From Candidatus Woesearchaeota archaeon (GTDB lineage Archaea > Nanobdellota > Nanobdellia > Pacearchaeales > GW2011-AR1): a stretch of DNA of 45,391 bases. The first letter of the stretch is position 1. Every line of letters starts with the position of its first letter. The stretch lies in NCBI GenBank assembly GCA_964483015.1, contig CAZAAB010000001.1, forward strand, positions 1 to 45,391, in the 5' to 3' direction. The notes beneath the pieces were generated by a model, which made no database searches, was not told the DNA's origin, and worked only from the letters and a program-made list of their open reading frames with translations. This document shows, one piece after another, positions 12,058 to 37,294 of the stretch. The position numbers and the translations under genes were made by a program.

Positions 12058-12288
12058 TTATGAGTATTTTTTAAATCCTACTTCTTCAGCTATTTCTCTG
12101 AAACATTGCCTGCATAAATTTAAGCCATATAAAGAAATGTGACCCCCCAATCTACCGCATCTCTCACATTTCTTAGTAGAGATTCCAAACTTTCTTTCTT
12201 TTGGCTTGTTATGCTTTAAAAATTTTTCAACTTTGTGCTTTTTTCCCTTTAACTGATTTAACAGCTTTTTCCAGTCTCCGGCAGTCAT
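12058..12288 (-). CDS. rps14: 30S ribosomal protein uS14 (zinc type, with N-terminal extension)
   Basis: CERCGR...CRQCFRE zinc motif; between uL5 and uS8. Confidence 0.85.
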
Positions 12289-12824
12289 TTTCTTTTCCTC
12301 CTCATTATTACTTCTGTGTTGAAATTTTTTTCTAAATAATTTATTATGTCTTGTTTTGTAACATGCTGTTTTTTAGGCAGTTTTCTTTTCTTCTTTCTTC
12401 TTTTGCTAATTCTTTTGCCTTTCCTGTAAAAACTTACACACACTGCTAATCCAATTATCCCTATGTCTCTCTGATACTCAATTCCAGGGATTTCTATATA
12501 TTCAGGTATCCCAAAAGAGAAAGTATCTGTAGAAATCTGCTTTTCCCTAATTTTATTGTCTATAGCTGCAAGCATTTTCTTTAAAATAGCTTTTGCCTCC
12601 CGACCTCTTAAGGTTACTATACATCCAACTTCCATCCCAGGGCTTACCCCCAAACCAGGTATTCTTTTCTCGCTTTTTCTTTTAACTGGTTTTTTATTTG
12701 TCAGTTTCTGCAACAGCTTAACACCCTTGTCTAAATCTTCTTCTCTCCCGCCTATGCTTAAAACTACTTTTTCTATTCTTGTTTTTCTCATCTCATTCTT
12801 ATTTTGTTTGTTTTCTTCTGCCAT
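12285..12824 (-). CDS. rpl5: 50S ribosomal protein uL5
   Basis: [15 protein letters not shown] typical uL5 start; operon position. Confidence 0.9.
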
Positions 12825-12826
12825 TT

Positions 12827-13450
12827 TTAACCTATAACTATCAAACTTTCTTGTTTTGTGTTTACTTTATCTTTTTTTATCTTAACTATAATCTCTTCTT
12901 TTTTCATCTCTTCAATCTTTCCTTCCTGCCCCATATGTTTCCCGCTTATGAATAAAACCCTGCTTCCTTTTTCTAACTTTAAAACATCAGAAATCTGATT
13001 TTTCTTAAAATCTATAATTACTGAATCTCCTGTGTTTATTTTTTTATCACTTATGTAGTTTCTTCCGTCACTTAAATTAACCTGTTGTTTATTGCCTTTT
13101 ACTAATTTCTTATCTTTAACCTTGCATATCTTATTTATTTTATCAGTTTTTTCTAATCCCATTTTTTTATTTTTTAAGACAACCTTAAACTTCTTGTCAT
13201 CTAAACCTAAAATATCAAATAAAGATAAAGGCATTTTTTCATCTTTTACTTTTTTCCCATTAACCTCGATTTTTCCTAAGTTCATTAATTTTTTTGCCTC
13301 TTTTCTGTTTTTAACTATGTTTAGTATGTCTCTTAAAGCTAAAATTACAGTTATAACATTTTCAAGACCGTGGTTAGGCTTAGCTAAATATTTAGTTCCT
13401 TTTCTTTCAACTGGCCATGATTTTGGCATGATTTTTCTTTTTAAGTACAT
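12827..13450 (-). CDS. rps4e: 30S ribosomal protein eS4
   Basis: MYLKRKIMPKSWPVERKGTKY N-terminus plus a KOW-like C-terminal part; operon position. Confidence 0.9.
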   Translation of the reverse strand: MYLKRKIMPKSWPVERKGTKYLAKPNHGLENVITVILALRDILNIVKNRKEAKKLMNLGKIEVNGKKVKDEKMPLSLFDILGLDDKKFKVVLKNKKMGLEKTDKINKICKVKDKKLVKGNKQQVNLSDGRNYISDKKINTGDSVIIDFKKNQISDVLKLEKGSRVLFISGKHMGQEGKIEEMKKEEIIVKIKKDKVNTKQESLIVIG

Positions 13451-13451
13451 T

Positions 13452-13910
13452 TTACTTCTCCTTCTTATTTTTCTTCTTCAACTTCTTACTCTTAACACCC
13501 TTGTCTTTTTCCTGTTTCTCACTTATCTTTTCTCCTTTTGTTAATGAAACTTCTCTTTCTCTGTCATCAAGATTTAGTTCTTGTATTTGCAGTTTTGATG
13601 GGTGAAAATAAGCATTTATCTTTGTCCCGTCCTTCTTCTGTCTTTGAATTTTCTCTATAGCGACTCTTGTTCTTTTTATCTCAACATTATTTATTTTCCC
13701 TGTTTTTCCCTTAAACTTGCCTCTCATAACCTTAACTAAATCCCCTTTTTTAACAGGAAAACTTTTTCTGCCATATTTTTTTCTTAAATCTTTGCTTAAG
13801 TTAGAAGATAAAAATTTCTTCCTTAAATGAAGGGGAGCATTAGCTAAATATTTTCTCTGTTTTCTTCTCTGCTTACTTTTCTTCCAGTTCTTACTAAATT
13901 TTTGTTTCAT
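13452..13910 (-). CDS. rpl24: 50S ribosomal protein uL24 (Lys-rich C-terminal tail)
   Basis: KOW motif VKKGDLVKVMRGKFKGKTGKI; operon position. Confidence 0.9.
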   Translation of the reverse strand: MKQKFSKNWKKSKQRRKQRKYLANAPLHLRKKFLSSNLSKDLRKKYGRKSFPVKKGDLVKVMRGKFKGKTGKINNVEIKRTRVAIEKIQRQKKDGTKINAYFHPSKLQIQELNLDDREREVSLTKGEKISEKQEKDKGVKSKKLKKKNKKEK

Positions 13911-14281
13911 CTTCTTACTCTTTCAAATGTGTCATCATAAATCTTATTTAAAGGGATATTCTCATGCTGCCTGTAGCCCCTTCTGTTTAATGTTGTTAGC
14001 ATTTCTATAGCTATTTTTTGCGCAACAAGCAACTTATACCTTTTTTCTCCAAGATAACCTCTCCAGCTTCCACTTATATCAACAACATCTTCACCCAGTT
14101 CTGCTAAACTTTCTGCAAGAGAATTTAAAAAACTACTTTCTGTTTTGCCAAAATCTCTCCAATTGCTGGCTGTTGCTATCCTCCTAAAAATGTCTTTTTT
14201 AGAATTATGTAGCGGAAGTTCTGCAAACTCGTCTAATTCTTCTCTGCTTACTCCTTTTGCTTTTAAACTTTCTTCTAACAT
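13907..14281 (-). CDS. hypothetical 124-aa protein inserted between uL14 and uL24
   Basis: ORF with a TAATG overlap on the uL14 stop (14279-14283) and an ATGA overlap on the uL24 start (13907-13910); the only motif noted is an R-x4/5-H pattern (R100/R101...H106). Confidence 0.6.
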   Translation of the reverse strand: MLEESLKAKGVSREELDEFAELPLHNSKKDIFRRIATASNWRDFGKTESSFLNSLAESLAELGEDVVDISGSWRGYLGEKRYKLLVAQKIAIEMLTTLNRRGYRQHENIPLNKIYDDTFERVRR

Positions 14282-14682
14282 TATACTATAACAGAAGCGA
14301 TTTTAGCAACTTCTTTCCACCTTTCACTTATTTCTCTTGGAACAGGCCCTTTTATTTGAGTTCCCTTTGGATTTCCTTTTTCATCTTTTAACAAGGCAAC
14401 AGCATTATCAGTAAAACATATTCTTTCTCCTGTTAATCTTCTGTATGGTTTTTTCTGTCTAACCACAATAGCATCAAAAACCTCGCCTTTAACATCAGGA
14501 TTTCCAACCCTAACTGAAACTTTAACCCAGTCTCCTATTTTGCATCCCATCTGCCTTTTCTTTTTCTTGCTTGCTTTTTTAACAGAAACAATCCTGACTA
14601 TTCTTGCTCCCGAATTGTCAGCTACAGGAACCTTGCTTCCTACATGTAATCCTTCTGTTGCTCTTGCTGAAATTGGTTTCAT
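14281..14682 (-). CDS. rpl14: 50S ribosomal protein uL14
   Basis: Start reassigned to the internal Met (MKPISARATEGLHVGSKVPVADNSGAR), which forms an ATGA overlap with the uS17 stop at 14679-14682. Confidence 0.9.
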   Translation of the reverse strand: MKPISARATEGLHVGSKVPVADNSGARIVRIVSVKKASKKKKRQMGCKIGDWVKVSVRVGNPDVKGEVFDAIVVRQKKPYRRLTGERICFTDNAVALLKDEKGNPKGTQIKGPVPREISERWKEVAKIASVIV

Positions 14683-15008
14683 TTTTCTCCTACTTTCTTT
14701 AAGTAAACAAAATGTATTAACTTGCTTAATGGCCTGCACTCTCCAATCTGCACATAATCTCCAACCTTAACTTTCTCTTTCTTGCAGTCAGGCAATCTTG
14801 CATGAAGTTTTGTTTTTTCTTTTTTATATCTTTCATATTTTTTAACAGGAACAACCCTTTCAAATTCCACAACTATTCTTTTTGGAAATTTTTTAGTTAC
14901 ATACCCTTTAAATTTTCTACCCCTAACTTTTAAGTTTCCATGAAAAGGGCATTTCACATCGCTACAGCTACCATTTTCTTTCTTCTGCTTCTCAATTTTC
15001 TCTACCAT
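14679..15008 (-). CDS. rps17: 30S ribosomal protein uS17
   Basis: CPFHGNLKVRGRKFKGYV and GDYVQIGECRPLSK motifs. Confidence 0.9.
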   Translation of the reverse strand: MVEKIEKQKKENGSCSDVKCPFHGNLKVRGRKFKGYVTKKFPKRIVVEFERVVPVKKYERYKKEKTKLHARLPDCKKEKVKVGDYVQIGECRPLSKLIHFVYLKKVGEK

Positions 15009-15043
15009 TTTCTTTCTATTTTTATTACAGCTAATTTTTAAGG

Positions 15044-15343
15044 TTAGCTGCTTATTTGGTCTTCCTTAAATCCCATCCCTACCAAAACTTTCTTTATTTT
15101 TTTCCTGTGGTCGCCTTGCAATTCTATGTTGCCTTCTTTTACTGTTCCTCCGCAAGCAAGTTTTGTTTTCAGCTTCTTTGATATATCCTTTAAGTCCACG
15201 TCTTTGTCAAACCCGCTTACTACTGTTGTTTTTTTACCAAACTTTCTTGTCTCTGTGTCTACTGTTATTTTTTGTTCTTCCTTTGCTATTTCCTGACATA
15301 TACAGGCTTCTTTTGGAAGACCGCATTTTGGGCATATTTCCAT
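15044..15343 (-). CDS. sui1: translation initiation factor aSUI1 (eIF1)
   Basis: N-terminal Cys knuckle [13 protein letters not shown]; [24 protein letters not shown] is typical of SUI1. Confidence 0.9.
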
Positions 15344-15344
15344 T

Positions 15345-15548
15345 TTATTTTTTTGAGTTTGAACTTTTTTCTAACGAGTTTTTCTTGCTTAATACTCTTG
15401 CTATAGCTTTTTTAATCTCTTTTCTATTTACTTTCATTGATTCAGCTGAAACATTTTTTTTAATTAGTTCTTTTCTTAGCTCTTTTAATTTTTTATTTAA
15501 TTCTTTTTCTCCCATATTTTCTATTTCTTTTTGTTTTAAAACTGCCAT
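15345..15548 (-). CDS. rpl29: 50S ribosomal protein uL29
   Basis: 67-aa helical protein ([13 protein letters not shown]) between uS3 and SUI1. Confidence 0.85.
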
Positions 15549-15550
15549 TT

Positions 15551-16237
15551 TTATTTCTTACTTTTTTTCTTTTTTTTATGTTTCTTTTTATCACCACCTT
15601 CTTTCTTCTCTTCTTTATTTTTACTTGCCTCAATTTCTTCAATAATTTCTTCTACTTCTACCTGGTCATGCAATCTAACATTTGCCGGGAGAATACTAAC
15701 TTTAATGCCGACAGTTCCAGATATAGTGTTTGCTTCAGCTTTAGCTCTATTGACCACTTTAGCTGTTTCTCCCGTTTTTTTAAGGTAGCCATGTGCAAAT
15801 CTCCAGCTTCTTGACCTGTCTGAAGGCAGTTTTCCAGATAATCTAATTTCAACACCTTTTGCCCCCGCCTTAACAATTCTTTCTAGCATTTTATAAGCTA
15901 TTGCCTTAAATCTTATAGGCCCGAATCTTTCTAACCCCTGAGCAATACTGTCTGCAACATACTGAGAGTCAAATTCTGGTTTTTCAACTTCATCAATTTC
16001 AATATGAGGGTTTTCAAGCCCGAATCTTTTTTTTAGGATTTTTGTAAGGCCTTCAATTCTTTCGCCACTTCTTCCAATAACATAACCAGGACTTGTTGTG
16101 GTTATAGTTATTTTTTCTCCGACAGGGGTATACTCTATATGTATGCTGCTCATTTTTCCCTTGCCCAGCTGTTTTTTTACATATTCTTTTATCTTATACT
16201 CTTCTTTTTTCAGCCTGACGAATTTTTCTTCTTCCAT
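15551..16237 (-). CDS. rps3: 30S ribosomal protein uS3 (Lys-rich C-terminal tail)
   Basis: KH domain (GYVIGRSGERIEGL) and a uS3 C-terminal domain; operon position. Confidence 0.9.
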   Translation of the reverse strand: MEEEKFVRLKKEEYKIKEYVKKQLGKGKMSSIHIEYTPVGEKITITTTSPGYVIGRSGERIEGLTKILKKRFGLENPHIEIDEVEKPEFDSQYVADSIAQGLERFGPIRFKAIAYKMLERIVKAGAKGVEIRLSGKLPSDRSRSWRFAHGYLKKTGETAKVVNRAKAEANTISGTVGIKVSILPANVRLHDQVEVEEIIEEIEASKNKEEKKEGGDKKKHKKKKKSKK

Positions 16238-16241
16238 TTTC

Positions 16242-16823
16242 TTATTTCTTCTTTTCTTGTTTTATTTCCCTTGTTTCTAAATAAACATTTGTTCTTTTTT
16301 TTCTTCTGCTTCCAAATCTTCTGTATGGCCTTGATGCAACGTCAGCTTTTACCGTTTTAATATAAGGTTTTTCTAAACCATTAAGATGAGAGTTTGCAGT
16401 TAGCTGTTTTAGTAATTTTATGAAAATAGTTGAAGCTTTTACAGGGTATTTGCCGCTTTCCATGCCTTTTTTATGAGCTATTTCCCCCCTTACAGGAACA
16501 GCCTTTTTCTTGTCTTTAACCTGCCTTAATATTTTTACTGCTTCTCCTATTTTCTTTCCCCGTATTAAATTACATATTGCTACTGAATATTTTGTAGACA
16601 TTTCTAAATTCTTTCCATTTACTACTGCCTTGTCTTTTTTTACCTTCTTCTTTTCTTTTTTCTTACTTTTCTCTTTCCCGCCTCCATCTTTCTTCATCTT
16701 CTTTTCTTTTTTTTTCTTCTCATTATCTCTCTTCTCACTTTTTTCTTCTTTCTCAGCTCCAGCTGCCTTTTTCTTCTCCTCATCTTTTTGTGTTTTTATT
16801 TCTTTATTTTTTTCTTTTGCCAT
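16242..16823 (-). CDS. rpl22: 50S ribosomal protein uL22 with an N-terminal Lys/Glu-rich extension of about 70 aa
   Basis: Core STKYSVAICNLIRGKKIGEAVKILRQV; operon position. Confidence 0.85.
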   Translation of the reverse strand: MAKEKNKEIKTQKDEEKKKAAGAEKEEKSEKRDNEKKKKEKKMKKDGGGKEKSKKKEKKKVKKDKAVVNGKNLEMSTKYSVAICNLIRGKKIGEAVKILRQVKDKKKAVPVRGEIAHKKGMESGKYPVKASTIFIKLLKQLTANSHLNGLEKPYIKTVKADVASRPYRRFGSRRKKRTNVYLETREIKQEKKK

Positions 16824-16830
16824 TTTATTG

Positions 16831-17223
16831 TTATTTTACAGACAATGCAGCTGAACTTCTTGTAGCTCCTATTCCTGGTGCTCCATGAGTTACATCTTTT
16901 CTTGTCCTGACAAATTCTCCTAATTTGTGGCCAATCATCTCTGCTTTTATACTAACCGGAGCATATTTTTGACCGTTATAAACATGAATAGTCATTCCAA
17001 TCATCTCAGGAACAATAACTAAATCTCTTGAATGCGTCCTTATTTGTTTACCCTTTTCCTGCTTTTTCTTGCATCTCTCTAAAAATTTCTCAATTTTATC
17101 AAAATTTCTCAATACTGTCCTTCTTGTTCTTGAATCAACAAATTTTGCAAATTCACGTATGTCTAACTGCTGAAGCTCTTCTAATGTTTTTCCTTTAAAT
17201 GTAAATTTCTTCTTTTCTGCCAT
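16831..17223 (-). CDS. rps19: 30S ribosomal protein uS19
   Basis: RDLVIVPEMIGMTIHVYNGQKY motif. Confidence 0.9.
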   Translation of the reverse strand: MAEKKKFTFKGKTLEELQQLDIREFAKFVDSRTRRTVLRNFDKIEKFLERCKKKQEKGKQIRTHSRDLVIVPEMIGMTIHVYNGQKYAPVSIKAEMIGHKLGEFVRTRKDVTHGAPGIGATRSSAALSVK

Positions 17224-17224
17224 T

Positions 17225-17932
17225 TTACTTCTTCTTCCTCCCAGTTCTTTTTGGTCTTAAGGTTCCAACTTTTGCACCAGCCGGGGCATTTTTTTTAGGT
17301 ATCTTGCCTTTTCTACCATGTGAGACATTTCTCCCTCTCCCGCTTCCAAAAGGATGGTCAACAGCATTCATTTTTACTGGGGATGTTTTTGGATATAATT
17401 TTCCTTTAGCTTTCATAATATAATACTTTTTACCTGCCTTAACTATTGGCTTTTCTAACCTTCCCTGTCCTGCAATAACTCCAATAGTGGCCCTGCAGTT
17501 TTTGTCAAGCCATTTTTCTTTTTTTGAAGGCAGTAATACAGCGACCCTGCCTTTTTCTTTTTTAGTAACTATAGCAGAATTTCCAGCTGTTCTTATTAAT
17601 TTGCCCCCGTCTCCGGGTCTGGACTCAATATTGAAGATTCTTGTTCCTGAAGGTATTTTTTCTAACTTAACTATATTCCCTTTTTCTATCTTTTCTCCAA
17701 TTTCAATCTCCTGTCCTTTAATAAGATTATTTAAGGCAGGAATGTAAAAAATTTCTTTCCCCACTTTTATTTTAGCTAAAGGGGCAGTATGTGCAGGGCT
17801 ATTAATTATATCTATTACCTTCCCCTTGCCTTCTTCCCGAGGATACCTCATTTTATTTCTAAATGCTCTTTTCTTTCTTCTATACTTAAAAGAGCCTCTT
17901 CCTCGTCTTTGCTGTATTATTCTTTTTCCCAT
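17225..17932 (-). CDS. rpl2: 50S ribosomal protein uL2
   Basis: MGKRIIQQRRGRGS start; DHPFGSGRGRNVS motif near the C-terminus. Confidence 0.95.
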   Translation of the reverse strand: MGKRIIQQRRGRGSFKYRRKKRAFRNKMRYPREEGKGKVIDIINSPAHTAPLAKIKVGKEIFYIPALNNLIKGQEIEIGEKIEKGNIVKLEKIPSGTRIFNIESRPGDGGKLIRTAGNSAIVTKKEKGRVAVLLPSKKEKWLDKNCRATIGVIAGQGRLEKPIVKAGKKYYIMKAKGKLYPKTSPVKMNAVDHPFGSGRGRNVSHGRKGKIPKKNAPAGAKVGTLRPKRTGRKKK

Positions 17933-17988
17933 CTTAAGACACCTAAGGTTTTTCCAACCCCCATTTATTTAATTGATTATTTGTCATT

Positions 17989-18228
17989 TTACATCATCCC
18001 CAAGCTTGTAGCAAGGTCAATAGCCTCGCTTCCCTTTAATTTAACATAAGCTATCTTCTTATTATCTTTAATATGACTTCTAATTTTCTCTACCTTAACA
18101 TTAAACATTTCTTCTACCTTTTTTTTAATCTCTGGCTTTTTCATTCTCCTATCTACCATAAACATAATTGTGTTTTCAGCTTCTATCAACTTTACGGCTT
18201 TTTCAGTTGTTATTGGTTTTATTGTCAT
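17989..18228 (-). CDS. rpl23: 50S ribosomal protein uL23
   Basis: 79 aa; TEKAVKLIEAENTIMFMVDRRMKKPEIKKKVEEMFNVKV. Confidence 0.9.
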   Translation of the reverse strand: MTIKPITTEKAVKLIEAENTIMFMVDRRMKKPEIKKKVEEMFNVKVEKIRSHIKDNKKIAYVKLKGSEAIDLATSLGMM

Positions 18229-18812
18229 TTTAACTTTTTAAAAATTTTTTCAAAACATCCAGCTTCTAATTTACAATCTTCTAACGCGTTATGGGGTTTT
18301 CCTTCAGTTATCTTGCCATTATTATTTTTTCTTCTTTCGTCTTTTACATTAAACATCTTTAAAATATCTGATAAACCCATACCATTTTTCCCGTCTTTAA
18401 TTTTAAATTTTCCATTTTTTATTTTGTAAAGTATCTGGGCAAGCGTAGACAATTCAAATCCCCTGTGCCCCAAAAACTTATCAAACTCATCTCTCAACCC
18501 ATATTTCAAACATTTAGTTTCTATAAACATGATATCAAAACCAATAGCCTGCCCGGCAATTATTCTTTTATCAACTTTTTCCAGCCATTTAAAAAATTCT
18601 TCTAATAATTCTTTTTGGCTTTGCTTGCCTTGTCTTAAATCTTCTTCTTTTTTTCCAACAATTTCTAAAGCTTCTTTCATAACCTCGTCTTCACCATCTA
18701 ATCTACATTCTTGCAGAAATTCTTCTCCTGTTTCGGTATTTATAGCCCCAATTTGCCAAATACCATTTTTGCTTATGTCTATTCCTGAAGTTTCAATATC
18801 TAAAACTATCAT
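18225..18812 (-). CDS. DEDDh-type 3'-5' exonuclease (DnaQ/RNase T-like) embedded between uL4 and uL23
   Basis: Exo I VLDIETSG, Exo II GQAIGFDIMF, Exo III HNALEDC; ATGA overlaps with the uL4 stop (18809-18812) and the uL23 start (18225-18228). Confidence 0.8.
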   Translation of the reverse strand: MIVLDIETSGIDISKNGIWQIGAINTETGEEFLQECRLDGEDEVMKEALEIVGKKEEDLRQGKQSQKELLEEFFKWLEKVDKRIIAGQAIGFDIMFIETKCLKYGLRDEFDKFLGHRGFELSTLAQILYKIKNGKFKIKDGKNGMGLSDILKMFNVKDERRKNNNGKITEGKPHNALEDCKLEAGCFEKIFKKLK

Positions 18813-19633
18813 TTTCCTTCCTTATTTGATTTATTTTTATCATTTTCCTTCCTGAACAATTTATTTAATTCTTTAACAGCTTTTTCAGTATAAATAGTTA
18901 AACGACCAAGAGGCCACAAATCTTCAATGTCAAGTTCAGCTGCTTTTTTTACATCAACTTTTTGAAATCTTGCATTTTCTTCACTACCTATAACTAACAA
19001 TAAACCCCGGGTTTTCTTATTTTTCCTGTTTCTTATCTTCCCCTTGCCGCTTCTTTTTTGTTTCTTTTTTATAACAACCTTATTAAGGTTGTTAAGAATT
19101 TTTTCTAATGCTTTGTAAAAGCCATTTGCCTTTAAATTCAAAATCTTGCTCTCTATAATTAGCGGCAAATCCAGATTAACTTCATTTATAGAAGAGTATC
19201 TTTTTTTAATTAAATTTTTTGTTATTGTTGCTGTCAATGCAGACCTTACAGCCTTTATTTTTTCTTTCTTGTTTATCTTTTTTCTTGCTTTTTTTGGTTT
19301 TGGAGGATGAGCTCTTCTCCCGCCTTTTGTTCCAGAAACACCAGCACCTTCCCAGTAAAATTGTGTACCTCTCCTCCAAAAAACTTTTCTTGGAACTCGC
19401 GAGATTCCCCTGCCATAATGGCTTCTAAATTTGTTTCTTGCATGCCTTGTTTTTCCTACTGCTGAAAATAACTTGCCAGAAAGATAATAAGGGCCATAAG
19501 GCTGTTTTTTCATCAGTTTTGAAACTTCATAATACTTTTGTGCTATATCTTCTCTAATCTGGCAAGAAAAACATTCAGGCAAATCTATTTTTCCTTTTTC
19601 CTTACCCTTAACATCCAAAATCTTTGCTTTCAT
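18809..19633 (-). CDS. rpl4: 50S ribosomal protein uL4
   Basis: GRGISRVPR and GGRRAHPPK motifs; follows uL3. Confidence 0.9.
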   Translation of the reverse strand: MKAKILDVKGKEKGKIDLPECFSCQIREDIAQKYYEVSKLMKKQPYGPYYLSGKLFSAVGKTRHARNKFRSHYGRGISRVPRKVFWRRGTQFYWEGAGVSGTKGGRRAHPPKPKKARKKINKKEKIKAVRSALTATITKNLIKKRYSSINEVNLDLPLIIESKILNLKANGFYKALEKILNNLNKVVIKKKQKRSGKGKIRNRKNKKTRGLLLVIGSEENARFQKVDVKKAAELDIEDLWPLGRLTIYTEKAVKELNKLFRKENDKNKSNKEGK

Positions 19634-20565
19634 TCTAACTTTATAAATTGATATTTTTGTTTAGTTTGTTTTTTTGACGGCCTTAAAGGCATTGTTAAAA
19701 GCAACGGCCTTTTTTTTGAGCCTTGCAAACTTCCCTTAATAACCATATACCCTGTTTTAATCTTGCCATAGCGTTTCCATTCTCCAAGCTTGTTTTCAGC
19801 TTTCCCCATTTTTAAAATATTGTTGTTGTATTGAATTCTTGTCTGCATGCCTGTTTGTCCAGCCATAGGAATTCTAAAAGTAACATGAGAAGGATGCCAA
19901 GGTCCTATACTTCCCACTTTTCTCCTGCCTTTTTCAGATTTATGATCCCTAAGCTTAATCCCAAATCTTTTTACAGGCCCTTGTATACCCTTGCCTTTTG
20001 TCAAACCTCTAATATCAACCAAATCATTTTCATTAAAATAATCAGAAGCAAGAATTTCCTTATTTAAGTTTTCTTTTACCCATTTTAGCTTTTCTTCCTT
20101 GCTTCCTGACAAACCAATTTCAGTTAAGTCAGGCTTCTTTTTTATACCTGTATTTTTAACTAAACTATAAGCAAGAATAGAAACATCATCATAATCTTTA
20201 ACTTTTTCTAAATCTTCTTTTTTTATTTTCTTTGGTAGTTTAACTTTCTTTTTCAGTTCTTTGTCACTACTAACAATAATATCTTGTTTAACCCTTCCAT
20301 TTTTATAAAATCTAACAGAAAAGATTTTCATTGGAGGAGTTTCAACAACAGTAGAAGCAAGAACAATATCCTTATTCTGACTTAATGAATTTTCTGTGTT
20401 ATCTTTAACAAAACAAGAAGCCATCCCAACTTTATAAGCAATAAACCCCAGCAATTTTTTATCAGAATTAATGACAGAATAGTTTACTCTAGGCAAAAAC
20501 TTTCTACTCCGTTTCCTTGGCCAGTACTGCAAAGAACCGGCTCTTGGTTTTGAATGCTTTGGCAT
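19630..20565 (-). CDS. rpl3: 50S ribosomal protein uL3
   Basis: MPKHSKPRAGSLQYWPRKR N-terminus; first gene of the cluster. Confidence 0.95.
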   Translation of the reverse strand: MPKHSKPRAGSLQYWPRKRSRKFLPRVNYSVINSDKKLLGFIAYKVGMASCFVKDNTENSLSQNKDIVLASTVVETPPMKIFSVRFYKNGRVKQDIIVSSDKELKKKVKLPKKIKKEDLEKVKDYDDVSILAYSLVKNTGIKKKPDLTEIGLSGSKEEKLKWVKENLNKEILASDYFNENDLVDIRGLTKGKGIQGPVKRFGIKLRDHKSEKGRRKVGSIGPWHPSHVTFRIPMAGQTGMQTRIQYNNNILKMGKAENKLGEWKRYGKIKTGYMVIKGSLQGSKKRPLLLTMPLRPSKKQTKQKYQFIKLE

Positions 20566-20809: not shown

Positions 20810-21013
20810 TCAGGTTTCTGAATTTCTTAGCATGGCTCTTCCGTGATCAGTCAGGTTTGCCGTTCTAAATGGTCTTTTACTAATTACACACCCTCTTGAG
20901 TTAAAATAAATAGGATTACCTCTTAAATAACCTAAATCTTCTTCATCTACAATCCTACCGCCATCATACTTTTTCAACAAATCTATCCTAATATCTGTAG
21001 ATTCATAACTCAT
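20810..21013 (-). CDS. hypothetical 67-aa protein
   Basis: ORF with its own TATA-like box (21035-21042) 21 nt upstream. Confidence 0.45.
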   Translation of the reverse strand: MSYESTDIRIDLLKKYDGGRIVDEEDLGYLRGNPIYFNSRGCVISKRPFRTANLTDHGRAMLRNSET

Positions 21014-21034
21014 ATAGCCAGTATGAAATCTTGC

Positions 21035-21042
21035 TATTTAAA
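21035..21042 (-). promoter_or_regulatory. TATA-box-like TTTAAATA (minus strand), 21 nt before the ATG at 21013
   Basis: Box and spacing pattern. Confidence 0.4.
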
Positions 21043-21097
21043 TTTAATCATAATTGAGAATAATGAAAAACCTTAAAATCAATAAAGAACAATAATT

Positions 21098-21355
21098 TCA
21101 TTTACCAACTTCTTCTTCAAATTCAGGAAAATAACTATTTATTGTTTTTAAGTTAAATTCTTTTAAAATAGATTGATTAGATTCTCTCCTCAATAAAAAC
21201 TGAAATGCCTTTTTAATCAACTCTTCTCTTGAGATTTTCTTTTTAGTCAATTTTTCATAATAATCTTCATCTAATTCAACAAGATGTTCGGTTTTCTGTT
21301 TATTGTCAACGGTAACCTTAAACTTCTTGTCTGCTTTCTCTATTTGAATTTGCAT
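21098..21355 (-). CDS. hypothetical 85-aa protein
   Basis: ORF 2 nt downstream of the 240-aa ORF; no family assigned. Confidence 0.5.
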   Translation of the reverse strand: MQIQIEKADKKFKVTVDNKQKTEHLVELDEDYYEKLTKKKISREELIKKAFQFLLRRESNQSILKEFNLKTINSYFPEFEEEVGK

Positions 21356-21357
21356 TT

Positions 21358-22080
21358 TTAAATAATAAACTCTTTTTCTTTTTTCTTCTTTCTACCACCA
21401 ACATCAATTTTCCTTATAACTTTTCCCTGCCTTTTTGCCATCTCTCTAATCTGCTTAGGAGATTTTTCTTTCATCAACTCTTTTATATTTTCAGGATACT
21501 TTATATTGTTTACAATAATATCGTGACTAATACTAACCTCATTAAAACTACTAATATCAAACAACAAGTCTTTAACAAGCTCTTTATCTCTTGTCTTCAG
21601 TTTGCAAAACCCAGTTTTTTTCTTGCCTTTCTTCTTACCGGGCTTAGCACTTCTTGGACTTTTCTCTTTTATCTTTAAATCAAAATTAGGAGAAGAAAAC
21701 GACAAACCGTAAAAAACTCTTGGATTTTTTTCTATCAACTCTTGCAACTTGTTTTTACTTGTTTCAGTATCAATAACATATTTTATCATCCCCATATATT
21801 TTTTCTTATCTTTTAATGGAAACTTAATGTCTTCTTCAATATCATATGTAGAGATTATAATGCCTCTTATTCTTATTTTTTCGTCAACTTTATTCAGGCA
21901 TTTTTCAATAAGAAAATTAGAAAATTCAGCTGAGGTTGAAATTTTAAACTTGCCGTCTTTCTGCTTTTTTACTTCAATATTATATCTATCTTCAAAATTA
22001 CCTTTCCCAAACTTAACAAACTCGTCATGAACCTTATCATCAATCTTATTTTCAAAAACTTTTTTTATTGGATTTTCCAT
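21358..22080 (-). CDS. hypothetical 240-aa basic protein
   Basis: Long ORF with a leaderless-type TATA spacing; no family assigned. Confidence 0.55.
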   Translation of the reverse strand: MENPIKKVFENKIDDKVHDEFVKFGKGNFEDRYNIEVKKQKDGKFKISTSAEFSNFLIEKCLNKVDEKIRIRGIIISTYDIEEDIKFPLKDKKKYMGMIKYVIDTETSKNKLQELIEKNPRVFYGLSFSSPNFDLKIKEKSPRSAKPGKKKGKKKTGFCKLKTRDKELVKDLLFDISSFNEVSISHDIIVNNIKYPENIKELMKEKSPKQIREMAKRQGKVIRKIDVGGRKKKKEKEFII

Positions 22081-23214: not shown

Positions 23215-24690
23215 ATGGCAAGGTTAAAGGTTAAGCTTTTAAAACTTAAGGCAGGAAAGCCAGTAGCAATTTTACATAAAAAGTTTGCAGAAAAATCAAC
23301 AATACATGTGGGTGAAAGAGTAATTATAAATGGTAACAAAAAAACAATCACAGCAATAATAGACACAGCTACAGGATTCCTTAATGAGAAAGAAGTAGTC
23401 CTTTCAAACGAGGTTGTAGAAAGGTTAAAAATAGATGAAGATGATTTTGTTGAAGTGAGTCAGGCCCCAAAACCTCGAACAATTTCTTTTATACATAAAA
23501 AATTAGAAGGAAAAAAGTTAGGCAAGGAAGAACTAAAAAAAATTATGTATGACATAGCCAATAACAATCTAACAGAAGCAGAAATTGCTTACTTTATAAC
23601 AGCGGTTTATAAAGAAGGGATGACAATGAAAGAGACAGCAGATATGACAAGAGCAATGGTTGAAACGGGAGAAAAGTTAAATTTAAGAGGAAAGATAGTT
23701 GACAAGCACAGCATAGGGGGAATTCCAGGAAGACTTACACCAATAATTGTTTCAATATGTTCAGCTGCGGGATTAAAAATGCCTAAAAATTCTTCAAGAG
23801 CAATTACTACAGCATCGGGAACAGCAGATGCAATGGAAACTATATGCAAGGTTGATTTCAAGCCAAAAGAAATTAAAAAAATTCTAAAAAAAACAAACGC
23901 AACATTAATTTGGGGGGGCAGTTTAAATTTAGCCCCGGTAGATGAGGAAATAATACGGGTAGAAAAAATACTTAATATTGACCCGGTTCCACAGCTTCTT
24001 TCAAGCATTTTAGCAAAAAAACTTGCAATTAACGCAAAGTATGTCTTAATCAACATACCTTATGGCAAAAATGCAAAAGTAACAAAAAAACAAGCTGGAA
24101 AATTAAAAAGAAAATTCAGTAAACTTGCCAAACATTTTAACATGCATATTAAATGTTTTTTAAACAATGTAAAAGAACCTTACGGAAATGGGATAGGCCC
24201 CGCATTAGAGATTAGAGATTCAATAAAAGTTTTGAAAAGGGAAAGTTCTTGCCACAATTTAGAAAAAAAAGCATTAATATTGTCAGGGAAGATTTTAGAG
24301 ATGACTGGGAAGGCAAAAAAAGGAAAAGGCAGAAAAAAAGCAAAAGAAATTCTTGATTCAGGAAGAGCATTTGAAAAATTCAAGCAGATTATTAAGGCCC
24401 AGAAAGGCAGCTTGAAAAATTTAAATAAAATTAAGCAGGCAAGGTTCAAGAAAATAATAAGAAGTGAAAAAAAAGGAAGGGTTAAAGAGATAAATATAAA
24501 AGAAATAAACAGTTTAGCAAGAATGGCTGGCTGCCCATTAGATAAATCAGCAGGCATTTATCTACATAAACATTTAAAAGATAAAGTTAAGAAGCAGGAA
24601 AAACTTTTAACAATCTATGCTAAGACAGAACAGGAATTAGAGCACGCAGTAAGATATTACAAAGAGGTTAAACCAGTAAGGATTAATTAA
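23215..24690 (+). CDS. deoA: AMP phosphorylase (archaeal thymidine-phosphorylase family)
   Basis: 491 aa with the extra N-terminal domain; DKHSIGGIPG motif; glycosyltransferase family 3 core. Confidence 0.8.
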   Translation: MARLKVKLLKLKAGKPVAILHKKFAEKSTIHVGERVIINGNKKTITAIIDTATGFLNEKEVVLSNEVVERLKIDEDDFVEVSQAPKPRTISFIHKKLEGKKLGKEELKKIMYDIANNNLTEAEIAYFITAVYKEGMTMKETADMTRAMVETGEKLNLRGKIVDKHSIGGIPGRLTPIIVSICSAAGLKMPKNSSRAITTASGTADAMETICKVDFKPKEIKKILKKTNATLIWGGSLNLAPVDEEIIRVEKILNIDPVPQLLSSILAKKLAINAKYVLINIPYGKNAKVTKKQAGKLKRKFSKLAKHFNMHIKCFLNNVKEPYGNGIGPALEIRDSIKVLKRESSCHNLEKKALILSGKILEMTGKAKKGKGRKKAKEILDSGRAFEKFKQIIKAQKGSLKNLNKIKQARFKKIIRSEKKGRVKEINIKEINSLARMAGCPLDKSAGIYLHKHLKDKVKKQEKLLTIYAKTEQELEHAVRYYKEVKPVRIN

Positions 24691-26598: not shown

Positions 26599-26750
26599 CG
26601 CCCGCGCCCGGAATCGAACCGGGAGGCCCATAAAGGGCCCGGCTTACTTGAATTTCATTAATCAGCTATCTTCTCGCCTGAAAATTTTTTGCGTTTTGAT
26701 TTAAAACTTTTATTCTCAAGGCCGGTGCAATACCATTATGCGACACGGGC
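26599..26750 (-). tRNA. tRNA-Ser(UGA) with a 70-nt intron (26645-26714) at the canonical 37/38 position
   Basis: Acceptor GCCCGTG/CGCGGGC, G73. Anticodon stem CCGGC/GCCGG with loop CTTGAG|A. Long variable arm GCCC-TTTAT-GGGC. T arm CCCGG-TTCGATT-CCGGG. TCAAG at the intron 3' end pairs with the anticodon loop. Confidence 0.7.
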
Positions 26751-36352: not shown

Positions 36353-37294
36353 TGTGCGCCCTACAGACATATGTCACCCTACTTTAGATTCCAAAAGTTG
36401 AAGTAGATTTCAGCAGGACTTCTTCGATCAAGGCTAGTATGTGGCCTAAAATGATTATATCTCATCCTAAATTCGTGATGGTCCTTGCAGAATCTAAGTT
36501 CTTTTTCCAAACTCTGAAAGAATCTTTCTATCTTTCCAGTTGTTGTAGGACTGTGAACTGCAGTTCTAATATGATTTATCTTCCTTCTTCTACACCATCT
36601 ATCAAACTTAGAGTGCTTGCTCTTCAATCCGAAAACACTACCATTATCAGTCAAAATTTCTCTAGGCCTTCCATGATAATCGACGAGATTATCAAGGATG
36701 TGGGTTACAACCGCAGTTGTAGCTCTATTAAGGTCCAGTAAACCAACACAATATCGAGAACAATCATCAATAACTGCAAAACAATACTTGTCTTCAATTT
36801 TCTGATCACTAACATCAATCTGCCATAGTGAATTAGGATGTTTTCTCTGCCATCTAATATACTTGTTCCTCTTTTTATAACGACAAGCAGGATTTGTGAG
36901 TTTGTTTTTATTCAAGATTTTATTAATCGAGCTATGTCCAATACTGACATAATTCGAGATCTTGTCTTCTCCCCAGCCAGTCTTATTTCTAAGTTTGATG
37001 ACTTTTTTCTCGATTGTAGGATTTATTTTATTATGAATTGTCTTAGGTCTTCTTGATCTGTCTCTTAAGTCCCAGTTGGTTTCATAATGCCGTTTTGTCC
37101 ATCTTTGCAATGTTCTTTTAGAAACTTCATATCCAAACTGAGAAAGAAGGATCTTTCTGCATTGATTTTGAGAATGCCCTTTAATTCTCAATCTGAAATA
37201 TTCTTTCCTAATTTCTTCTTTTTTCATTAGGAAAGCACGAAATCAAAGCAGAACTAATTTTCGGTTCCTAGTGACATATGTCACCAGGCTATAC
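36353..37294 (-). mobile_element. IS481-like insertion sequence (942 bp)
   Basis: Single DDE transposase ORF. Imperfect terminal inverted repeats TGTGCGCCCTACAGACATATGTCAC / TGTATAGCCTGGTGACATATGTCAC. Flanked by the 16-bp direct repeat. Confidence 0.8.
36379..37227 (-). CDS. DDE transposase (rve integrase core, IS481-like)
   Basis: 282 aa; N-terminal HTH; WQIDVSD, LTDNGSVF and KIERFFQSLEKE fit D, D, E catalytic segments. Confidence 0.8.
   Translation of the reverse strand: MKKEEIRKEYFRLRIKGHSQNQCRKILLSQFGYEVSKRTLQRWTKRHYETNWDLRDRSRRPKTIHNKINPTIEKKVIKLRNKTGWGEDKISNYVSIGHSSINKILNKNKLTNPACRYKKRNKYIRWQRKHPNSLWQIDVSDQKIEDKYCFAVIDDCSRYCVGLLDLNRATTAVVTHILDNLVDYHGRPREILTDNGSVFGLKSKHSKFDRWCRRRKINHIRTAVHSPTTTGKIERFFQSLEKELRFCKDHHEFRMRYNHFRPHTSLDRRSPAEIYFNFWNLK

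Follow-up and report, generated by a model that had tools for sequence, protein, structure and literature searches.

A DEDDh exonuclease gene between uL4 and uL23 in the ribosomal protein operon of Pacearchaeota-type archaea

The ribosomal protein (r-protein) operon of a Pacearchaeota-type DPANN archaeon carries, between its uL4 and uL23 genes, what sequence analysis and structure modelling identify as an intact, stand-alone DEDDh (DnaQ-like) 3'-5' exonuclease. The gene lies on a 45,391-nucleotide (nt) stretch of genomic DNA, hereafter the window (Candidatus Woesearchaeota archaeon, assembly GCA_964483015.1, contig CAZAAB010000001.1, positions 1 to 45,391). We propose that it is an accessory, horizontally exchanged DEDDh cassette lodged immediately upstream of essential information-processing genes; translational coupling would drive its expression, and the enzyme would probably act on single-stranded 3' ends, with a lean towards DNA. 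We give this reading a probability of about 0.6. The enzyme itself is an ordinary-looking DEDDh exonuclease, and the interest lies in its genomic behaviour, not in its mechanism. The features of the locus are as follows.

18225..18812, minus strand: coding sequence of the stand-alone DEDDh (DnaQ-like) 3'-5' exonuclease, 195 amino acids (aa); open reading frame (ORF) with ATG start, assigned with Pfam, AlphaFold2 and Foldseek
18783..18806, minus strand: Exo I motif VLDIETSG with catalytic D5 and E7, both invariant in 81 of 81 copies
18525..18554, minus strand: Exo II motif GQAIGFDIMF with catalytic D93, invariant in 81 of 81 copies
18273..18293, minus strand: Exo III motif of the h type, HNALEDC, with H174 and D179, present in 80 of 81 copies (the exception is truncated)
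18809..18812, minus strand: ATGA overlap of the uL4 TGA with the exonuclease ATG, evident in the sequence itself; 40 of 52 operon-type loci share this 4-bp overlap
18816..18823, minus strand: Shine-Dalgarno-like purine-rich sequence AAGGAAGG within the final codons of uL4, at 4-11 nt before the exonuclease ATG
18225..18228, minus strand: ATGA overlap of the exonuclease TGA with the uL23 ATG, evident in the sequence itself; 33 of 52 operon-type loci share this 4-bp overlap
18809..19633, minus strand: uL4 gene, upstream neighbour (Pfam Ribosomal_L4, 1.3e-19)
17989..18228, minus strand: uL23 gene, downstream neighbour (Pfam Ribosomal_L23, 4.3e-15)
12285..20565, minus strand: archaeal S10/spc-type r-protein operon hosting the insert, profile-confirmed part from uL3 to uL5 (Pfam matches; tightly packed co-directional ORFs)

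A sequence-only reading of the window had proposed that the 195-aa ORF contains three DEDD motifs ending in an h-type His, and all three were confirmed: IVLDIETSG occupies residues 2-10, GQAIGFDIMF residues 87-96 and HNALEDC residues 174-180. The third motif is H-x4-D, which marks the h subtype, and not Y-x3-D. All five catalytic residues are invariant in a 33-sequence alignment, and they are intact in 80 of 81 family copies, the exception being a 144-aa fragment. Pfam RNase_T (PF00929) matched residues 2-182 at 49.9 bits against a cutoff of 24 (E = 7e-13), and the Pfam family of Rv2179c-like 3'-5' exoribonucleases (PF16473) matched over the full length at 35 bits against a cutoff of 27 (E = 1.5e-8). 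The second match overlaps the stronger RNase_T match on the same residues, and we read it as superfamily-level evidence, no proof of RNA specificity. AlphaFold2 predicted an RNase H-like alpha/beta DEDDh fold with high confidence (predicted local distance difference test, pLDDT, 95.4; predicted template modelling score, pTM, 0.90). Foldseek matched the model to RNase T, DnaQ, Cas2-DEDDh, the PolC exonuclease (PolC-exo) and phage DnaQ; of its 204 PDB matches at E ≤ 1e-3, the best 50 listed were all DEDDh-type exonucleases or exonuclease domains. The class first assigned by eye thus stands, the DEDDh fold having been recovered by profile and by structure.

None of the curated NCBIfam equivalogs reached its cutoff: Ribonuclease T (TIGR01298) scored 13.6 bits against 246.2, Orn (NF003765) 23.1 against 106, and the epsilon/PolC models (TIGR01406, NF004316 and TIGR01405) 24.8-31.1 against 196-1043. 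The exonuclease therefore belongs to an uncharacterised subfamily. PolC and DnaQ models were the top-ranked named NCBIfam families, though below cutoff, and public records call family members simply '3'-5' exonuclease'. We found 261 homologs, and an exhaustive profile search gave about 125 clusters (50% identity) at E ≤ 1e-30. Identity across the group is 40-60%, under purifying selection; the ratio of nonsynonymous to synonymous divergence (dN/dS) was 0.06-0.35 where measurable, similar to that of neighbouring genes.

Most members, including distant ones, share a conserved C-terminal tail of about 20 aa, RLxYGKxLFxE[FY]xK[FY]x[IV]PxxL (alignment columns ~225-245; P0019-P0111, P0145, P0184 and P0261 in our protein numbering), a possible protein-interaction motif. 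The tail has been lost in the window protein and its closest relatives. Among distant relatives (P0122, P0145, P0184 and P0261) there are tandem duplications with one seemingly degenerate copy, one fusion to an unrelated C-terminal domain of about 130 aa and members in which H-x4-G replaces the catalytic H-x4-D. A search for fusion partners in 1.84 billion representatives found the longer members to be tandem duplications, apart from one with an unrelated C-terminal domain, and indicated no pathway.

Both ATGA overlaps noted in the sequence-only reading are present when the minus strand is read. At the start of the gene this strand is AAGGAAGGAAAATGATAG, where the exonuclease ATG (18812-18810) overlaps the uL4 TGA (18811-18809); at its end it is GTTAAAATGACAATA, where the uL23 ATG (18228-18226) overlaps the exonuclease TGA (18227-18225). 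Among 41 aligned start regions, a GGAG-like 4-mer lies at -17 to -3, within the uL4 coding tail, in 39, and the ATGA is kept in 40. The coupling to uL4 and uL23 that had been proposed is supported by these recurrent signals, which predict that the exonuclease would be made as one cistron of the r-protein mRNA through coupled termination and re-initiation, with the purine-rich ribosome-binding motif in the final uL4 codons serving its ATG. The gene is on the same strand as its neighbours, leaves no room for a promoter or terminator of its own and has coupling signals towards both sides. Its guanine-cytosine (GC) content of 30.4%, against 31.6% for the window, is native-like. Overlaps of 4 bp are common in the host operon (about 7 of 22 junctions in the window), so the coupling marks the exonuclease as an ordinary operon cistron and does not single it out.

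Beyond uL4 and uL23 the flanks are uL3 upstream and uL2 downstream by Pfam, and across the host operon Pfam matched uL3, uL4, uL23, uL2, uL22, SUI1, uL14, uL24, eS4 and uL5. Co-directional ORFs continue downstream to ~6681 and, judged by position, probably make up the remainder of the spc cluster together with SecY.

Recurrence, alternative homes and exchange

We scanned one genome per GTDB species and collected 80 loci encoding the exonuclease family, from Pacearchaeota/Woesearchaeota DPANN archaea. The order uL3-uL4-exonuclease-uL23-uL2-uS19 was present on one strand in 52 of them, and one further contig ends before uL23 (53/80). Nine additional metagenome contigs contain uL4-exonuclease-uL23, and a few of all these contigs are duplicates of one another; the genomes closest by r-protein similarity are labelled Candidatus Pacearchaeota. 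Because the same arrangement recurs across independent contigs, an assembly error and a one-off neutral insertion are ruled out. The sequence-only reading had allowed that the junction might be misassembled, or that homologs might prove scattered and never linked to the operon; neither turned out to be the case, since the placement is conserved in many genomes. Apart from the general rarity of inserts at the uL4/uL23 junction, nothing suggests that the gene was inserted recently and neutrally, or that the junction is an artefact of assembly or binning; we consider this explanation extremely improbable. About 60 separate contigs from many studies refute it by recurrence, and the conserved catalytic residues, dN/dS below 0.35, native composition and conserved coupling signals also count against it. 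No earlier report of the insertion or of the family was found in the searchable literature, which did not cover subscription journals.

We also surveyed the slot independently of the exonuclease, using uL2 as the anchor in 66 informative metagenome loci from related organisms (uL2 identity 53-63%). The uL4 and uL23 genes were directly adjacent in 53 loci, the exonuclease lay between them in nine and another insert in four. The slot lacks the exonuclease in most relatives, so the gene is not a universal member of the operon. True operon members show conserved presence across a lineage; here, only 9 of these 66 relatives have the exonuclease in the slot, and its history is discordant with its flanks. 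In a neighbour-joining tree of concatenated uL4, uL23 and uL2 from 107 loci, the two slot states are intermingled within each of the two deep branches, a pattern that takes about 23 changes under parsimony.

These figures bear on the role suggested in the sequence-only reading, a ribosome-associated or ribosomal RNA (rRNA)/transfer RNA (tRNA) 3'-trimming enzyme. In its full form this explanation holds that the protein is an RNase T/ERI1-like trimmer or an Orn-like nanoRNase, made in stoichiometry with the r-proteins and maturing or recycling RNA in a reduced genome. Archaeal r-protein operons do host RNA-processing and translation factors, SUI1 is encoded in the window's operon, and the exonuclease is embedded and translationally coupled there in 53 of 80 genomes. 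The empty slot in 53 of 66 related lineages argues against such a role, as does horizontal exchange discordant with the flanks.

The 27 exonuclease loci outside the r-protein operon point to two further homes. In 16 of them by tblastn (15 by ORF clustering) the gene immediately downstream is Gins51, identified by Pfam Gins51_C (1.6e-8), and the exonuclease stop overlaps the Gins51 start by 4 nt in eight loci and by 14 nt in three (11 of the 16). In three other loci, including the complete genome CP061211, the order is uS15, a RecJ/Cdc45-like DHH-CID protein, the exonuclease, aIF2alpha and aEF1beta. Here about 235 nt separate the RecJ-like gene from the exonuclease. In the two of these loci where the exonuclease gene is intact, it runs up to or into aIF2alpha, and given the gap behind it, it is probably the first gene of the aIF2alpha unit. 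In the protein tree the copies inside and outside the operon are intermixed and therefore form one family, and we rejected the idea of two paralogous families on this ground. Across the 80 loci the immediate neighbours identified were r-protein, Gins51, aIF2alpha or ApgM genes, and no polymerase was among them; the exonuclease is a 195-aa single domain without fusion.

Between the exonuclease stop and Gins51, three loci contain a GC-richer insert of about 130 nt (L024:3472-3603, L049:5609-5743 and L070:5606-5739). In L024 and L049 it is preceded by a duplicate of the first ~33 nt of Gins51 (MITYKDIYEAA), and the true Gins51 start follows the insert. Rfam gave no match to these inserts, only tRNAs elsewhere in the same loci. 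The insert may represent a small element that is mobile or structured.

The association with Gins51 and aIF2alpha recalls the archaeal clusters described by Berthon et al. 2008 (PMC2643942), where Gins15-PCNA-PriS adjoins L44E-S27E-aIF2alpha-Nop10. Those clusters (PMC2643942), SUI1/aIF1 (SUI1 being in the window operon) and SecY are likewise non-ribosomal information-processing genes packed co-directionally with ribosomal, translation or replication genes. However, the SUI1, SecY and Gins15-cluster associations are near-universal and vertical, whereas the exonuclease is patchy, toggles among three homes and is horizontally exchanged.

An alternative built on these links is a replisome-associated exonuclease that binds Gins51 or CMG/GAN, perhaps through the C-terminal tail, and removes mismatched or RNA 3' ends or 3' flaps, its placement reflecting archaeal replication-translation clustering. 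The 11 overlaps with Gins51, the three loci adjoining the RecJ/Cdc45-like protein, the DnaQ, PolC and phage polymerase-exonuclease types among its relatives, the contiguity of Gins15 clusters with translation genes (Berthon et al. 2008, PMC2643942) and the retention of RLxYGKxLFxEFxKxxxP even in distant relatives all agree with it. We nevertheless judge it unlikely: the window protein and its sub-clade have no tail, the ~235-nt gap to RecJ suggests that the exonuclease probably heads the aIF2alpha unit, a patchy and exchanged gene is unlike core replisome parts, and proofreading by PolD/DP1 and PolB is present in these lineages.

The history of the exonuclease is decoupled from that of its flanking genes. 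The Mantel correlation between exonuclease and r-protein distances was 0.34 (reached in 0 of 2000 permutations), against 0.64-0.85 among the r-proteins. The clearest pair is L077 and L141 (our loci are numbered L001-L160), in which uL3, uL4, uL23, uL2 and uS19 are 91-99% identical and the flanks taken together 95%, with a synonymous divergence (dS) of 0.28 for uL2, and the exonucleases are 66% identical with saturated dS. Nucleotide identity in this pair drops from ~0.9 to ~0.67 over the body of the exonuclease and recovers in the final ~60 nt of the gene. By their flanks, L077 pairs with L141 and L063 with L139; by their exonuclease alleles, L063, L066 and L077 group together (0.85-0.88), as do L139 and L141 (0.87), with ~0.65 between the groups. 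Among 23 locus pairs with flank identity of at least 0.75, the exonuclease was at least 15 points lower in 17. The simplest reading of these patterns is cassette replacement via recombination through the conserved flanks, which would also account for clean presence or absence between sister lineages. Allele swaps would occur by homologous recombination via the highly conserved neighbouring genes.

A GC-rich element, GGGACACCCC...TACGCAT...TGCCCCCGAGGA, is found in some of these AT-rich genomes (L141:1519-1573 and 2293-2345, L077:5613-5661, L063:3681-3725). It stands on both sides of the exonuclease in L141 and at the exonuclease 3' end in L077 and L063, and in L077 it is translated as a C-terminal extension of the protein. 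A repeat-flanked mobile element as the general mechanism of transfer was rejected, the element being confined to the small clade of L141, L077 and L063.

Other inserts in the ribosomal operon

The exonuclease is not the only insert in this operon. We counted inserts of at least 150 nt at each junction in the unbiased locus set, with the following occupancy.

uL3/uL4: 10 of 49
uL4/uL23: 11 of 64
uL23/uL2: 9 of 73
uL2/uS19: 11 of 71
uS19/uL22: 6 of 55
uL22/uS3: 9 of 49
uS3/uL29: 1 of 18
uS17/uL14: 10 of 37
uL14/uL24: 8 of 35
uL24/eS4: 2 of 33

No insert of this size was present at uL29/SUI1, SUI1/uS17 or eS4/uL5 in the same set. At most junctions, about 6-27% of lineages (L001-L160) have such an insert on the same strand, with ORFs of 50-170 aa that are nearly all unrelated singletons. 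The 53 exonuclease-anchored operon loci have, at the junctions from uL3 to uS19, 62 same-strand ORFs of at least 50 aa, almost all mutually unrelated. When ten slot ORFs were scanned, the majority had no Pfam match; the exceptions included two enzymes, a Nudix hydrolase and an HD/YfbR-like 5'-deoxynucleotidase, as well as small four-cysteine proteins. Of all the inserts, only the exonuclease is widely conserved, being found across dozens of species. Since the operon takes up miscellaneous cargo, the position of the exonuclease is weak evidence for a ribosomal function, which tells further against a dedicated RNA-trimming role.

Several of these inserts deserve individual mention. A NUDIX hydrolase (6e-17) lies between uL4 and the exonuclease at L054:4618-5004, an HD_3/YfbR-like 5'-deoxynucleotidase (3e-30) between uL23 and uL2 at L075:3600-4187, and a 501-aa lipoprotein-like ORF with no Pfam match between the exonuclease and uL23 at L037:4205-5710; two of these three are nucleotide-metabolism enzymes. 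In five species, small ORFs (52-87 aa) whose products contain four or five cysteines separate uL4 from the exonuclease (L003:4829-4987, L007:635-793, L014:4828-5004, L020:4726-4989 and L023:4795-4983). They follow a loose G-x-C-E...C...C...C pattern and are too short and diverged for BLAST clustering; the one scanned gave a sub-threshold ZZ zinc-finger match.

The window itself holds a second insert, an ORF of 124 aa at 13907-14281 (minus strand) between uL14 (14281-14739) and uL24 (13452-13910), overlapping both. It had no Pfam or PHROG match, and a homolog search returned only the ORF itself. Its sole detected homolog came from tblastn (43% identity, E = 7e-31) and is located in the uL4/exonuclease slot of another locus (L080:2123-2518). 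This gene family appears to move between slots of the ribosomal operon.

These observations raise a broader proposal, which we put forward tentatively and hold to be less probable than its opposite. The r-protein operon of Pacearchaeota/Woesearchaeota might act as an integrase-free platform for gene capture and expression, in which promoter-less cassettes enter the junctions, are translated by coupling and are swapped, lost or replaced with the r-protein genes as homology arms. The DEDDh exonuclease would then be the most successful and longest-lived cassette, and the junctions with Gins51 and aIF2alpha would work in the same way.

Substrate and nearest known systems

The closest relatives of the exonuclease are mostly enzymes of the DNA type. 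The best profile E-value was to PHROG 192 (phrog_192), 'DNA polymerase exonuclease subunit' (1.9e-20), and the best PADLOC match was the CRISPR-associated DEDDh model PDLC01247 (3.4e-15, 54.9 bits, residues 2-187; the library has no curated cutoff). Searched against the PDB, the family profile matched the DnaQ domain 8h18 (2e-13), the PolC exonuclease 2p1j (1.4e-12) and Cas2-DEDDh (5e-12), followed by RNase T (4e-5) and epsilon (3e-4), and Orn was not among the matches at E ≤ 0.01. The best fold match was a stand-alone phage DnaQ of 196 aa (template modelling score, TM, 0.78/0.78; root-mean-square deviation 2.6 Å). RNase T aligned over its full length (E = 1.5e-9, TM ~0.68) and is among the top solved-structure matches. 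Fold comparison was tried as a way to decide between RNA and DNA and was not decisive, RNase T, DnaQ domains, PolC-exo, epsilon, ERI and TREX-like enzymes all scoring TM 0.62-0.71. Judged by its closest relatives, the substrate leans towards DNA.

For the RNA-trimming explanation, the RNase T structures, the Rv2179c-like Pfam match (35 bits against 27) and the home directly upstream of aIF2alpha-aEF1beta are favourable. Against it, the commonest alternative partner is the replisome protein Gins51, the NCBIfam RNase T and Orn models score 13.6 bits against 246 and 23.1 against 106, profile E-values place DNA-type exonucleases ahead by 8-15 orders of magnitude, and the many unrelated inserts make the operon context weak evidence. 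With the slot empty in about 80% of relatives, the other homes, the exchange, the porous operon and the DNA-type relatives, the role proposed in the sequence-only reading is unsupported and somewhat disfavoured, and we regard it as improbable.

Among known nucleases, four groups come nearest. Phage DnaQ-like/DEDDh proteins (PHROG 192; BFVD A0A6J5RX21 and A0A8S5MDI5) share the size (~196 aa) and the single-domain DEDDh architecture. They differ in being only 20-24% identical, and the archaeal family is chromosomal, located in housekeeping operons and nearly absent from viral contigs; what the phage proteins do is itself known mostly by inference. CRISPR-associated DEDDh/DnaQ domains (Cas2-DEDDh 8fyc/8fy9; Streptococcus thermophilus DnaQ domain 8h18/8h2f) are the closest solved sequences (2e-13 to 3e-11 with the family profile) and share the DEDDh core (TM 0.67-0.71 on the query, 0.78-0.80 on the target), relative to which the window protein has two insertions between Exo II and Exo III. 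Such CRISPR-associated proteins are fused to Cas proteins or encoded next to them, and the role described for them is the trimming of DNA ends in spacer integration. The window exonuclease is unfused, without Cas2, and its immediate neighbours are uL4 and uL23.

The PolC-type exonuclease and Pol III epsilon have the DEDDh motifs and fold in common with the window exonuclease. Pol III epsilon carries a C-terminal polymerase- and clamp-binding segment, for which the 195-aa catalytic domain leaves no room, and the replication context differs in that these archaea are reported to use PolD and PolB. The bacterial DEDDh RNases RNase T and Orn, which act in stable-RNA 3' trimming and nanoRNA degradation, have the same fold, but their models score far under cutoff. 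PolD subunits and a PolII-like B7 PolB have been reported for these lineages, and those papers do not mention a loss of proofreading. A 'missing proofreader' rationale was rejected on this ground.

The phage and CRISPR relationships also bear on whether the gene is a conflict-related or selfish hitchhiker, for example a defence or anti-defence nuclease of viral origin that persists by wedging itself, coupled, before essential genes, like the other fast-turnover slot ORFs. Its patchy distribution, allele replacement and clean presence or absence between sister lineages would suit such a cassette, as would slots full of lineage-specific ORFans, the CRISPR-associated DEDDh as best PADLOC match (3.4e-15) and phage exonucleases as best fold and PHROG matches. 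We think this quite unlikely, more so than an RNA-trimming or a replisome role. Catalytic residues are invariant, group identity is 40-60% under purifying selection, and the exonuclease is conserved over dozens of species, unlike the ORFans. The immediate neighbours in 160 fetched loci are r-protein, Gins51, aIF2alpha and other housekeeping genes, with no cas or defence genes adjacent (only immediate neighbours were scanned for cas/CRISPR). IMG/VR returned two distant relatives only, at 27-30% identity, and viral origin or carriage of the exonuclease was rejected on that result.

Several points weigh against the accessory-cassette reading that we prefer. The sequence and fold of a DEDDh protein cannot reveal its substrate, RNase T is among the top structures (TM ~0.68) and the Rv2179c-like Pfam family passes its cutoff. 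All three homes include translation genes (uL23, aIF2alpha) or lie in known archaeal translation-replication clusters, and the enzyme may therefore act on RNA instead. There is no obvious gap on the DNA side, PolD/DP1 and PolB already proofreading in these lineages. Co-transcription and translational coupling are inferred from sequence, and the trees were built by neighbour joining from alignments that are short and saturated. Some of the allele incongruence could be mimicked if metagenome assembly produced chimeras at conserved genes, although each allele is present in two or three separate contigs. On the cassette reading, the enzyme would use two-metal catalysis to trim nucleotides off single-stranded nucleic acid at free 3' ends; DNA 3' ends would be the likelier substrate, and growth-linked end clean-up or nucleotide recycling a likelier task than dedicated rRNA/tRNA trimming.

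Remaining features of the window and wider meaning

Otherwise the window is typical archaeal chromosome and encodes AglB/STT3, prefoldin, FtsZ, Tyw1, uL1, uL10 and uL11. An AMP/pyrimidine-nucleoside-phosphorylase-like gene (Glycos_trans_3N, Glycos_transf_3, PYNP_C) at 23215-24690 (plus strand) lies 2.6 kb from the operon, and this nucleotide-salvage enzyme may bear on the nucleotide-recycling idea for the exonuclease. Directly upstream of uL3, at 20810-22080 (minus strand), are three consecutive ORFs of 67, 85 and 240 aa with no significant Pfam match, and the operon promoter is presumably near them. The uL22 gene at 16242-16823 (minus strand) has an N-terminal extension of ~65 aa with an extremely high content of Lys and Glu, and its Pfam L22 match covers residues 70-182 only. 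An Rfam tRNA match of 38.7 bits at 26599-26750 (minus strand) spans 152 nt, about twice the normal tRNA length, and was missed by ARAGORN; it is probably an intron-containing archaeal tRNA. An IS-type transposase/integrase (rve core and HTH_32) lies at 36379-37227 (minus strand), with FtsZ on one side and the uL11 region on the other.

Few gene strings in cellular life are as stable as L3-L4-L23-L2, on which most phylogenies built from the genomes of uncultured archaea are founded. Within one large group of DPANN archaea it is interrupted repeatedly, and guilt by association from operon context is less reliable in these genomes than is usually assumed. Phylogenetic markers taken as a 'syntenic ribosomal block' may be mosaics, since inner segments can differ in recombination history. 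The exonuclease is small and well folded (pLDDT 95) and hence tractable, and from its substrate one could learn how symbionts with reduced genomes deal with the ends of nucleic acids or recycle nucleotides. More novel than the enzyme, the ribosomal operon may itself act as a platform for cassettes.

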